Below are positions 805 to 4,193 of a stretch of 64,000 bases of DNA, one piece after another (within the stretch, counting starts at the first letter, position 1; the number at the start of each line of letters is the position of its first letter). This DNA comes from Laetmonice hystrix (taxonomy: Eukaryota). Under the pieces are notes generated by a model. It was not told the origin of the DNA, ran no database searches, and saw nothing but the letters and a program-made list of their open reading frames with translations. The stretch is from NCBI GenBank assembly GCA_965235115.1, contig OZ249436.1, positions 620,001-684,000 of the forward strand. Reading direction: 5' to 3'. The position numbers and the translations under genes are program-made.

Positions 805-1096
805 CAGCCTAGCTCTGACGATATTAGCCACCATGGCAATATCTGCTGGTCACTCACACACAATCACACAAGTACATTCAGCCTAGCTATCTGCTGGTCA
901 CCCACACACAATCACACAAGTACATTCAGCCTAGCTCTGACGATATTAGCCACCATGGCAATATCTGCTGGTCACCCACACACAATCACACAAGTACATG
1001 GTCACCCACACACAATCACACAAGTACATTCAGCCTAGCTATCTGCTGGTCACCCACACACAATCACACAAGTACATTCAGCCTAGCTATCTGCTG
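805..1096. repeat. Host minisatellite (CACACAATCACACAAGTACATTCAGCCTAGCT-type units), left part
   Basis: Variable tandem units. The same motif resumes at 3043-3233, so the array is interrupted by the 334-bp concatemer. Confidence 0.85.
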
Positions 1097-3043
1097 TGTA
1101 GCTCTAACTAGGAAAATATGGATTCCGTCTCATTTCAAAAAGATGTGTGTAGGGGGGAGGGTCCATTGTCCTGCTCGACCACCAAAGCTCCTTTTTTAGG
1201 GGAGTGGCGGTGGCCTAGTGGGCATGGATGTCGACACCTTATGCTATGCGAATGGGTGCAGTAATCTTAGGGTCTGGGTTCGATTCCTGTAGAGGACTAT
1301 ACAACTTTTCTCTTTAGGGACATTGTCAAAGTAATTGGGTTACCCCTGATGCCCGTGCATTTCAAAAGAAAAATACAGTCTACGCCAGTGCCAGGATTAC
1401 CTTAACAGTCAATGTTCGGTAGAAATCATGTGTAGCTCTAACTAGGAAAATATGGATTCCGTCTCATTTCAAAAAGATGTGTGTAGGGGGGAGGGTCCAT
1501 TGTCCTGCTCGACCACCAAAGCTCCTTTTTTAGGGGAGTGGCGGTGGCCTAGTGGGCATGGATGTCGACACCTTATGCTATGCGAATGGGTGCAGTAATC
1601 TTAGGGTCTGGGTTCGATTCCTGTAGAGGACTATACAACTTTTCTCTTTAGGGACATTGTCAAAGTAATTGGGTTACCCCTGATGCCCGTGCATTTCAAA
1701 AGAAAAATACAGTCTACGCCAGTGCCAGGATTACCTTAACAGTCAATGTTCGGTAGAAATCATGTGTAGCTCTAACTAGGAAAATATGGATTCCGTCTCA
1801 TTTCAAAAAGATGTGTGTAGGGGGGAGGGTCCATTGTCCTGCTCGACCACCAAAGCTCCTTTTTTAGGGGAGTGGCGGTGGCCTAGTGGGCATGGATGTC
1901 GACACCTTATGCTATGCGAATGGGTGCAGTAATCTTAGGGTCTGGGTTCGATTCCTGTAGAGGACTATACAACTTTTCTCTTTAGGGACATTGTCAAAGT
2001 AATTGGGTTACCCCTGATGCCCGTGCATTTCAAAAGAAAAATACAGTCTACGCCAGTGCCAGGATTACCTTAACAGTCAATGTTCGGTAGAAATCATGTG
2101 TAGCTCTAACTAGGAAAATATGGATTCCGTCTCATTTCAAAAAGATGTGTGTAGGGGGGAGGGTCCATTGTCCTGCTCGACCACCAAAGCTCCTTTTTTA
2201 GGGGAGTGGCGGTGGCCTAGTGGGCATGGATGTCGACACCTTATGCTATGCGAATGGGTGCAGTAATCTTAGGGTCTGGGTTCGATTCCTGTAGAGGACT
2301 ATACAACTTTTCTCTTTAGGGACATTGTCAAAGTAATTGGGTTACCCCTGATGCCCGTGCATTTCAAAAGAAAAATACAGTCTACGCCAGTGCCAGGATT
2401 ACCTTAACAGTCAATGTTCGGTAGAAATCATGTGTAGCTCTAACTAGGAAAATATGGATTCCGTCTCATTTCAAAAAGATGTGTGTAGGGGGGAGGGTCC
2501 ATTGTCCTGCTCGACCACCAAAGCTCCTTTTTTAGGGGAGTGGCGGTGGCCTAGTGGGCATGGATGTCGACACCTTATGCTATGCGAATGGGTGCAGTAA
2601 TCTTAGGGTCTGGGTTCGATTCCTGTAGAGGACTATACAACTTTTCTCTTTAGGGACATTGTCAAAGTAATTGGGTTACCCCTGATGCCCGTGCATTTCA
2701 AAAGAAAAATACAGTCTACGCCAGTGCCAGGATTACCTTAACAGTCAATGTTCGGTAGAAATCATGTGTAGCTCTAACTAGGAAAATATGGATTCCGTCT
2801 CATTTCAAAAAGATGTGTGTAGGGGGGAGGGTCCATTGTCCTGCTCGACCACCAAAGCTCCTTTTTTAGGGGAGTGGCGGTGGCCTAGTGGGCATGGATG
2901 TCGACACCTTATGCTATGCGAATGGGTGCAGTAATCTTAGGGTCTGGGTTCGATTCCTGTAGAGGACTATACAACTTTTCTCTTTAGGGACATTGTCAAA
3001 GTAATTGGGTTACCCCTGATGCCCGTGCATTTCAAAAGAAAAA
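1095..3043 (+). mobile_element. Head-to-tail concatemer (about 5.8 copies) of a 334-bp tRNA-promoter-bearing, rod-folding element (SINE/retrozyme/viroid-like)
   Basis: Units start at 1095, 1429, 1763, 2097, 2431 and 2765 (period 334), with no differences seen by eye. Each has an A box TGGCCTAGTGG (1211-1221), a B box GGTTCGATTCC (1277-1287) and T6 (1192-1197) just before the tRNA-like head. The acceptor stem does not pair, so it is not a functional tRNA. Confidence 0.8.
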
Positions 3044-3233
3044 CACAATCACACAAGTACATTCAGCCTAGCTCTGACGATATTAACCACCGTCACCCAC
3101 ACACAATCACACAAGTACATTCAGCCTAGCTCTGACGATATTAACCACCGTCACCCACACACAATCACACAAGTACATTCAGCCTAGCTCTGACGATATT
3201 AACCACCGTCACCCACACACAATCACACAAGTA
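3043..3233. repeat. Host minisatellite, right part
   Basis: Tandem CACACAATCACACAAGTACATTCAGCCTAGCTCTGACGATATTAACCACCGTCACCCA units, related to 805-1096. Confidence 0.85.
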
Positions 3234-4193
3234 TATTGACATCCTATATACAGAACGCCGCTCCTGTTCTCGGAACGTTTCGGGTGACATTTATAATATC
3301 GGCATCACATCACCCAACCCCCATTGTTTAACGTTTCAGTCAGAATCGTTTCACCAAAGCCTCCTGCGCTACCCTCACTATGCCGTTATACAATGTCTAA
3401 GGAATGTGTACTTTTGAGTATAATACGTTTGTCGAAACATGCAGTCAGCTCAATTTGGATACATTGTATAACCATGGCCTTTCGCCAGCATGTCACAACT
3501 GGAATACTTATTGTATTTAAATACGTGATATCTCTAATCAACATAATCAAAATACGTCTACAAAAAATCCAGGTCACGTGCCCAGAGCTTTTATCTACAT
3601 GTTTATAATAATACTATAGAGGCACACAATAAACCAACCTGTAAACGGTATCCCTCTTTGTACATGCACACCTGATCTTATTCTTTGGAAACCTTCACAA
3701 TGATTTCGATAATTCGCCTTCTGATGCAACATTCCCTGCTCTATCTTAAACATAACCATCAATTCCAAGGTAAAAATCACAGTTCTTTCAGAAGTCTTGA
3801 ATGAGATGTTATGTAATGAGTCGGACAAACAGAACTTCTAACATGTCGAACACTTGCGCAGTCAATCCAACTACATAGAAGCAGTTCCGGGTCATTGTTT
3901 GTCCCATACACCCATTGGGTCGACACGCATGCGTACTTAAACCTCTAATTGTAGCATAGATTCAAATCCTCGGACGAATCTTCGCATAGAAAGATGGACG
4001 TCTTTGATAAATGTGGATCGGAATCAGATAGGATGTGACGTCACACGGAACGGTTGCACACTGATCGAGACGGTCACAGAACGGTTGCACACTGATCGAG
4101 ACGGTCACAGAACCATGAGCACATCGCGCCCTCTCTCTTGATCCGTCGTCTCGGCATTCAGTTTACAAACACACACACGTAACCTTGCGTCCT

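Follow-up and report, generated by a model that had tools for sequence, protein, structure and literature searches.

A 334-bp tandem array in Laetmonice hystrix is probably one insertion of a SINE-type retroposon family rather than a copy of a viroid-like RNA

tRNA-derived short interspersed elements (SINEs) are non-autonomous retroposons that are transcribed by RNA polymerase III (Pol III) and moved by the reverse transcriptase of long interspersed elements (LINEs). A second kind of short repeat, found in schistosomes, was reportedly the subject of a paper by Ferbeyre and colleagues (1998). A type I hammerhead defines the animal retrozymes that lack long terminal repeats (non-LTR retrozymes), whose tandem units, of 150-450 bp, are scattered in the genome with larger target duplications and are expressed as highly self-paired circles of about 170-400 nt that are closed by RtcB (PMC7229834); the Schistosoma mansoni retrozyme contains a piece of tRNA-Glu (PMC4918200, legend to Fig. 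7), and a 2026 preprint derives retrozymes from Penelope-like elements (bioRxiv 10.64898/2026.07.22.740005). SINE-derived satellites of squamates are attributed to unequal recombination (PMC10702118). Here we describe a tandem array of a 334-bp unit near the start of a 64-kb stretch of Laetmonice hystrix DNA (contig OZ249436.1, positions 620,001 to 684,000), the whole of which is called the window below. An earlier note had read this array as the DNA copy of a rod-shaped, viroid-like RNA. Our analysis indicates instead, with a probability of roughly 0.8, that it is one insertion of a high-copy, non-coding, SINE-type retroposon.

Tandem Repeats Finder (TRF), run on the 64-kb window, places a single tandem array at 1095-3047 (period 334, 5.8 copies, 99% matches) in which units 1-5 show no letter differences, and to this extent the 334-nt repeat of the earlier note is real. 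The array opens with unit position 1-3 at its 5' junction, and its 3' junction lies between 3043 and 3050. The unit has a G+C content of 46%, with a plus-strand composition of T 96, G 87, A 85 and C 66, and is non-coding, the longest stop-free stretch on either strand being 50 aa. The parts of the insertion, in window coordinates and with the basis of each assignment, are as follows.

1095-3050, plus strand: whole insertion, comprising five complete 334-bp units and a last unit that stops at about unit 279-286 (TRF; BLAST chain from unit 1 to 286; junction letters).
1199-1380, plus strand: 182-nt SINE monomer, unit 105-286, bounded by G105, the predicted Pol III start, and by the fixed 3' terminus ...GAAAAATACAGT(C) (5' starts and 3' ends of copies).
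1211-1221, plus strand: box A-like motif TGGCCTAGTGG of a type-2 Pol III promoter, in 6/6 units (+334n) (pattern count).
1277-1287, plus strand: box B or T-loop-like motif GGTTCGATTCC, in 6/6 units (+334n) (pattern count).
1374-1380, plus strand: TACAGTC, the endpoint of copies; ACAG(T) also opens many target-site duplications (3' junctions of 83 copies).
1381-1532, plus strand: 152-nt spacer between successive monomers, unit 287-334 plus 1-104, repeated each 334 bp (39-unit alignment).
1192-1197, plus strand: T6 run, unit 98-103, one base upstream of G105, predicted to terminate Pol III transcription of the preceding unit and lying at the apex of a hairpin (sequence, with the role predicted).
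1146-1246, plus strand: 101-nt imperfect hairpin in which the spacer end (unit 53-103) pairs with the SINE head (unit 104-150) through 38 pairs, 10 of them G-U (folding).
1153-1188, plus strand: longest invariant stretch, 36 nt, unit 59-94, which makes up the hairpin's left arm and precedes G105 by 11-46 nt (alignment).

The monomer recurs each 334 bp, at 1533, 1867, 2201, 2535 and 2869, where the last copy is cut, and positions 1095-1198 represent a partial first spacer. The two promoter-like motifs are concentrated in the array beyond chance expectation, the box A pattern TRGCNNAGTGG having eight matches in the 64 kb, six of them within units (1.09 expected), and the box B pattern GGTTCGANNCC having six, all six within units (0.19 expected). 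Both boxes lie on the plus strand, 66 nt apart from start to start, with box A beginning 12 nt downstream of G105, and we take TGGCCTAGTGG and GGTTCGATTCC to fit the type-2 Pol III promoter consensus for box A and box B, respectively. In an alignment of 39 distinct full units from many loci, T99-T103 are invariant in 39/39 and the length of the run varies across the family from T5 to T7. An invariant run as long as unit 59-94 arises in 28/5000 shuffles of the variable positions, the 39 units being mutually non-independent; this stretch could be conserved for pairing or as an upstream promoter element. The spacer has a constant sequence in the arrays of all loci examined in this alignment. Its origin as a decayed inverted or direct copy of the monomer was considered and rejected, local alignment scores being equal to those of shuffles and the global alignment of the arms falling within them. 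The spacer segment CCGTCTCATTTCAAAAAGATG (1131-1148) does resemble the monomer tail CCGTGCATTTCAAAAGAAAAATACAG (1358-1380), but the best local direct match, 10 nt long, is by itself not significant, being equalled in 60/300 shuffles.

Beyond the window, the family is dispersed on many chromosomes of a 627-Mb eukaryotic assembly of 35 contigs, in about 6,000 copies. Exact-pattern counts, forward and reverse together, are 6,104 for a 29-mer of the 3' tail, 5,588 for a 32-mer of the monomer and 3,638 for a 32-mer of the spacer, with reversed-pattern controls of zero, and this gradient from tail through monomer to spacer fits loss from the 5' side. Sixty further loci were taken as best BLAST hits (L031-L050), by the spacer pattern (L051-L070) or by the tail pattern (L071-L090), and chaining of BLAST hits in these loci and the window gave 96 insertions that do not touch a locus edge. 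The 3' end of these insertions is fixed, 83/96 ending at unit 279-292 and 67 of those 83 at unit 284-286, with the terminal sequence already given for the monomer, and the 5' end is ragged, with a peak at G105. Among 37 copies in the monomer range nine start at unit 102-109 and 33 at unit 102-150; ten copies start inside the spacer without containing any tandem repeat; two begin at unit 305 and are about one unit long; and 31 exceed one unit, with starts scattered from unit 1 to unit 302. Of the 24 copies at the 20 loci drawn with the tail pattern only, 21 are monomer-range, and the number of units per locus ranges from less than one to at least 15. Target duplications of 5 to about 20 bp that open with ACAG accompany many of the insertions (for example L034, L049, L068, L037, L056 and L043), others being associated with small target deletions with microhomology. 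These marks of retroposition, together with the short stop-free stretches, agree with the earlier proposal that the array is the DNA copy of a non-coding RNA. The identity of five units and the 99-100% likeness of many copies suggest that the family is apparently young. Three 20-mers of the unit were found in none of the full texts searched, which shows only that those strings are absent there, and the family may already be catalogued under some name.

Two apparent features of the ends were discarded. An RNA cut site at unit 286/287 was rejected, as only 3/31 multi-unit copies start there, two of them with CTAC-type target microhomology, and the apparent starts at unit 285-334 came from longer copies whose BLAST hits were split. 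Endings at the T run (unit 89-95) are limited to two copies, both ambiguous. With regard to targets, copies have landed most often in an approximately 33-bp minisatellite, …CCTAATCACT ACAGTC AGGTGGGGTATATAGGG… (L038, L040, L042, L048, L056, L084 and others), and about one-third of the sampled copies lie exactly at its ACAGTC. Several loci contain three to five separate 5'-truncated copies, one minisatellite unit apart, and two further ACAGT-containing minisatellites, ACAGTGAGGCCAA… and ACAGTGAGGGCTCCCTACATG…, are repeatedly struck.

The rod on which the viroid-like reading was founded was examined by scoring folds as minimum free energy (MFE) against dinucleotide shuffles, and rods as the pairing of the two halves of a circle (ViennaRNA duplexfold). 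The helices listed in the earlier note and the two terminal loops can indeed be drawn: the circle cut at unit 101, in the T6 run, yields, across 162 x 148 nt, 110 pairs with an energy of -93.6 kcal/mol (45 G-C, 38 A-U and 27 G-U), with loops at the T6 run (1192-1197) and at UUUC-AAAA-GAAA (1360-1371). The optimal fold of the unit is, however, branched, contrary to the unbranched rod that had been expected, and its energy does not improve on that of shuffles on either strand, whether linear (plus, -91.8 versus -95.9 +/- 5.3 kcal/mol, z +0.77, with 75/100 shuffles at least as good; minus, -77.9 versus -77.2 +/- 5.0, z -0.15, 41/100) or circular (plus, -88.4 versus -90.1 +/- 5.4, z +0.32, 93/150; minus, z +0.09, 79/150). 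Rods as such are readily obtained from shuffled sequence, the best rods of 30 shuffles averaging -81.8 +/- 4.4 kcal/mol and 97 pairs (maximum 109) against the observed -93.3 and 110 pairs. The observed energy was reached by 0/30 shuffles, and by 0/25 in a second run (mean 97-99 pairs), corresponding to a z of about -2.6. The minus-strand rod has -73.8 against -64.6 +/- 4.5 kcal/mol in shuffles, and the asymmetry between the strands, which had been offered as an RNA signal, is reproduced by shuffles.

The modest excess of the rod is confined to the 101-nt hairpin at the T6 run, which as plus-strand RNA has -44.7 kcal/mol versus -34.3 +/- 3.5 (z -2.98, 0/200 shuffles as good), a z that is flattered by the choice of 1146-1246 after the fold had been viewed; as minus-strand RNA z is -1.40 and with DNA parameters +0.15. 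The remaining 233 nt of the unit have a z of +1.03. The preponderance of G-U over A-C oppositions, taken earlier as a sign of selection on RNA, has a simpler source, since the plus strand is G+U-rich and G-U is counted as a pair. The rods of 25 shuffles contain 18.8 +/- 3.4 G-U and 0.7 A-C, compared with 27 and 2 in the unit, so that the figure of about two A-C given previously is correct and that of about a dozen G-U is too low.

Comparison of units points in the same direction. At a mean column identity of 94% the divergence of the 39 units is too low for a real covariation test, and within this limit none of the 72 outer rod pairs varies on both sides, so that the compensatory changes looked for in diverged copies are missing from them. 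Unit 28 and unit 179 fail to pair in 21/39 units, a second pair is broken in seven, and the rod-breaking C at unit 179 is the commonest variant of the family, accounting for 1,106,983 of 1,135,289 depth units of genome reads. The T at window position 1273 (unit 179) is the minority variant, C being present in nearly all of the depth of run X1 and in the sole contig of run X5. Among the 38 pairs of the inner hairpin, 26 are invariant, seven have one-sided changes that retain the pair, four depart by unpaired cells only, and one has changed on both sides (C-G to U-A), in only one sequence and at a level matched by 32/500 shuffles. With respect to covariation the rod is unsupported, and for the hairpin there is a hint only.

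Descent of the array from a new class of viroid-like RNA, circular, rod-shaped and self-replicating, would account for the 334-nt size, for the tandem units and for a drawable 110-pair rod whose energy no shuffle attained. We nevertheless regard it as extremely improbable, because the MFE does not improve on shuffles in any of the four tests, the fold is branched with 233 of the 334 nt at chance, shuffles themselves yield 97-pair rods, compensatory changes are missing from the outer 72 pairs, and the commonest variant breaks a rod pair. The Pol III promoter motifs and the thousands of retroposed copies fit a SINE and not a replicon. We see no sign of an RNA replicon or of an undescribed class; the unit, with its Pol III boxes, behaves as a SINE, and the full-length rod is without a role.

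If the array is a SINE-type insertion, the origin of its tandem units has to be explained. Arrays with at least three units are uniform inside at 15 diagnostic sites and different between loci, an observation that fits a uniform template and growth in place equally well. The array on contig 30 (L047, G000:C30:8927400-8932616) has at least 15 units, in which 334-bp units alternate with a 374-bp variant carrying a 40-bp insertion, and this higher-order pattern shows that growth in place does occur. Arrays at unrelated loci carry the family 3' end together with a 5'-truncated first unit, so that spacer-containing and multi-unit copies must have been transposed as such, from RNAs longer than the monomer. 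Classical satellite DNA was rejected as a description of the family, since the arrays are short and scattered, with retroposition junctions; one of them has higher-order structure.

The array length could in principle be generated wholly at the DNA level, if two monomers 152 bp apart had given rise by unequal recombination to a fixed 334-bp repeat, all further length had come from unequal exchange and the match to a Pol III start and stop were coincidental. A precedent exists in squamate satellites derived from SINEs, which are ascribed to unequal homologous recombination (PMC10702118), and both the near-identity of units within arrays and the 334/374-bp periodicity on contig 30 are as this explanation would have it. 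It is difficult to reconcile, however, with the presence of one spacer sequence at all loci, with the ten copies that start in the spacer and contain no tandem repeat, and with the fixed 3' end, truncated first unit and ACAG-type junctions shared by unrelated arrays, which imply that spacer copies move via RNA. We therefore consider an origin purely by DNA recombination improbable.

For the SINE-type retroposon the following sequence of events may be proposed. Pol III would start at G105, about 12 nt upstream of box A, and a reverse transcriptase supplied in trans would prime on nicked ACAGT-type targets annealing to the ACAGU of the RNA and copy toward the 5' end, giving for the most part monomers of at most 182 nt. 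Spacer-reaching and multi-unit copies would most likely be derived from read-through transcripts of existing arrays, plus array growth in place. As G105 is preceded, one base away, by the T run, the repeat corresponds to one predicted Pol III transcription unit, and if the unit is one transcript the 101-nt hairpin would be formed by its paired 5' and 3' ends. The founding repeat probably arose at the RNA level, because the predicted start site and the T6 terminator exactly delimit the unit; on reaching the 5' end of a 334-nt primary transcript, the reverse transcriptase may have gone on to an oligo-U 3' end, the two ends being kept together by the 101-nt stem. The genome offers at least 4,701 reverse-transcriptase candidates, and among 150 that were scored many have intact frames that measure between about 950 and about 1,400 codons, so that several retroelement families look recently active.

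Several observations weigh against this account. The start site, the terminator and the use of Pol III are all predictions from sequence, and the monomer contains a T4 run (unit 212-215) through which transcripts must read. No tRNA was recognised in the family head by ARAGORN or Rfam, the sole Rfam alignment being an 11-nt T-loop match to the tmRNA model at box B, and the case for a tRNA ancestry accordingly consists of two motifs. Thirteen of the 96 insertions have different 3' ends, although most of these look rearranged or old. None of the 31 multi-unit copies starts at unit 102-109, which misfits both linear templates from G105 and simple end-to-end template jumps. The 3' regions of eight LINE families, sampled out of the reverse-transcriptase candidates counted above, show no similarity to the unit, and a search for the terminal 23-mer joined to unrelated upstream sequence gave 0 matches. 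The sampling of loci was also uneven, through the use of best BLAST hits and of the spacer pattern.

The distribution of multi-unit starts bears on a further alternative, in which the family is a retrozyme-like element free of a ribozyme. Its 334-nt Pol III transcript would be circularised, either covalently by a cellular RNA ligase or non-covalently through a terminal stem of about 45 bp, and reverse transcription running round the circle would yield head-to-tail multi-unit cDNAs. An endless template of this kind predicts 5' starts spread over the whole unit without a cluster at 102-109, as is observed, and the uniformity of all arrays of at least three units at the diagnostic sites would follow from it, although growth in place and the random truncation of long linear templates would lead to both just as readily. 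The boundaries of the unit coincide with a predicted start site and T6 terminator one base apart, and the transcript ends would pair in a stem that exceeds shuffles as plus-strand RNA only; yet the bounds of this stem were chosen after the fold, and its one double change is confined to one sequence. Animal retrozymes of 150-450 bp, ligated by RtcB, share the genomic look of the family (PMC7229834). Against a circle stands the outcome of the ribozyme searches, in which cmscan reported no Rfam family, whether over 6 kb (E<=1) or over 706 nt (E<=10), and the hammerhead core CUGANGA was absent from both strands of the unit, two matches to it in L001 falling in the flanking minisatellite. The statement in the earlier note that a hammerhead is lacking is thereby upheld, as is its choice of animal retrozymes as the nearest analogue, and no other known source of ligatable ends is apparent. 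Pol III transcripts moreover carry a 5' triphosphate. We give the circular template only a small chance, and likewise hold it unlikely that the 334-nt unit is exactly one Pol III transcript, copied round as a panhandle or circle, by which a SINE would make retrozyme-like tandems ribozyme-free.

The surroundings of the SINE-type insertion in the window consist of related minisatellites, as follows.

840-1096, no strand assigned: 48-bp minisatellite, the left flank and target of the insertion (TRF; the motif family resumes to the right of the array).
3043-3237, no strand assigned: 58-bp minisatellite of the same motif family as the left flank, forming the right flank of the insertion (TRF; sequence).

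The window as a whole is packed with minisatellites and lies about 620 kb from a contig end; TRF lists 106 rows in it, whose periods range from 12 to 334 and many of which have 10-56 copies. The tandem joint of the 334-bp unit was also seen in 11 contigs of run X1 and one of run X5, these being contigs of unknown kind. Run X5 is labelled as a second organism, and its one contig, of 364 nt, contains a whole unit and the tandem joint with three differences; the family is therefore common to a second organism, or the sample is very close to the organism of the window.

Four described systems may be compared with the family. It resembles viroids and viroid-like satellite RNAs in size class and in a rod that can be drawn, but unlike them has no thermodynamic excess over its full length, no Rfam ribozyme or viroid motif, and a genomic DNA stage with Pol III promoter motifs. 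A viroid-like replicon would have been remarkable; that reading fails, and what remains is a well-defined retroposon family. With squamate SINE-derived satellites it has in common tandem arrays formed from SINE sequence at many loci, the long arrays being more uniform. The squamate units are portions of SINEs thought to have grown by DNA recombination at each locus, and they have neither a constant spacer nor retroposition junctions; both are present in this family, whose unit includes the complete monomer. Retrozymes, including the hammerhead repeats of schistosomes and newts (PMC7229834 and PMC4918200), are likewise dispersed short tandems, from dimers to large multimers, with a GC content below 50% and variable target duplications; the present family differs in having no type I hammerhead and in self-pairing that is at chance outside one hairpin.

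Like tRNA-derived SINEs, the family consists of thousands of non-coding copies scattered through the genome, with a monomer length of about 180 nt and the two Pol III boxes, A and B, close to the 5' end. The copies also resemble them in being 5'-truncated, in having short target duplications and in a fixed 3' end that has an A-rich stretch. It departs from them in a head that is not recognised as tRNA, in having no LINE with a shared tail among the eight families compared, in a 3' end that is a specific ACAGT(C) matching the target in place of a poly(A) or simple-repeat tail, and in the many multi-unit copies, which include an unchanging spacer of 152 nt that is not part of the SINE. Identification of the mobilising enzyme would be helped by the marked preference for minisatellites that contain ACAGT. 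If the match between unit and transcript is causal, the family would provide a test system for reverse transcriptases that make tandem DNA from small structured RNAs and could show how SINE-derived satellites begin. The family joins SINEs and tandem arrays of the retrozyme type, which are usually treated apart, without the ribozyme that has been thought defining for the latter.

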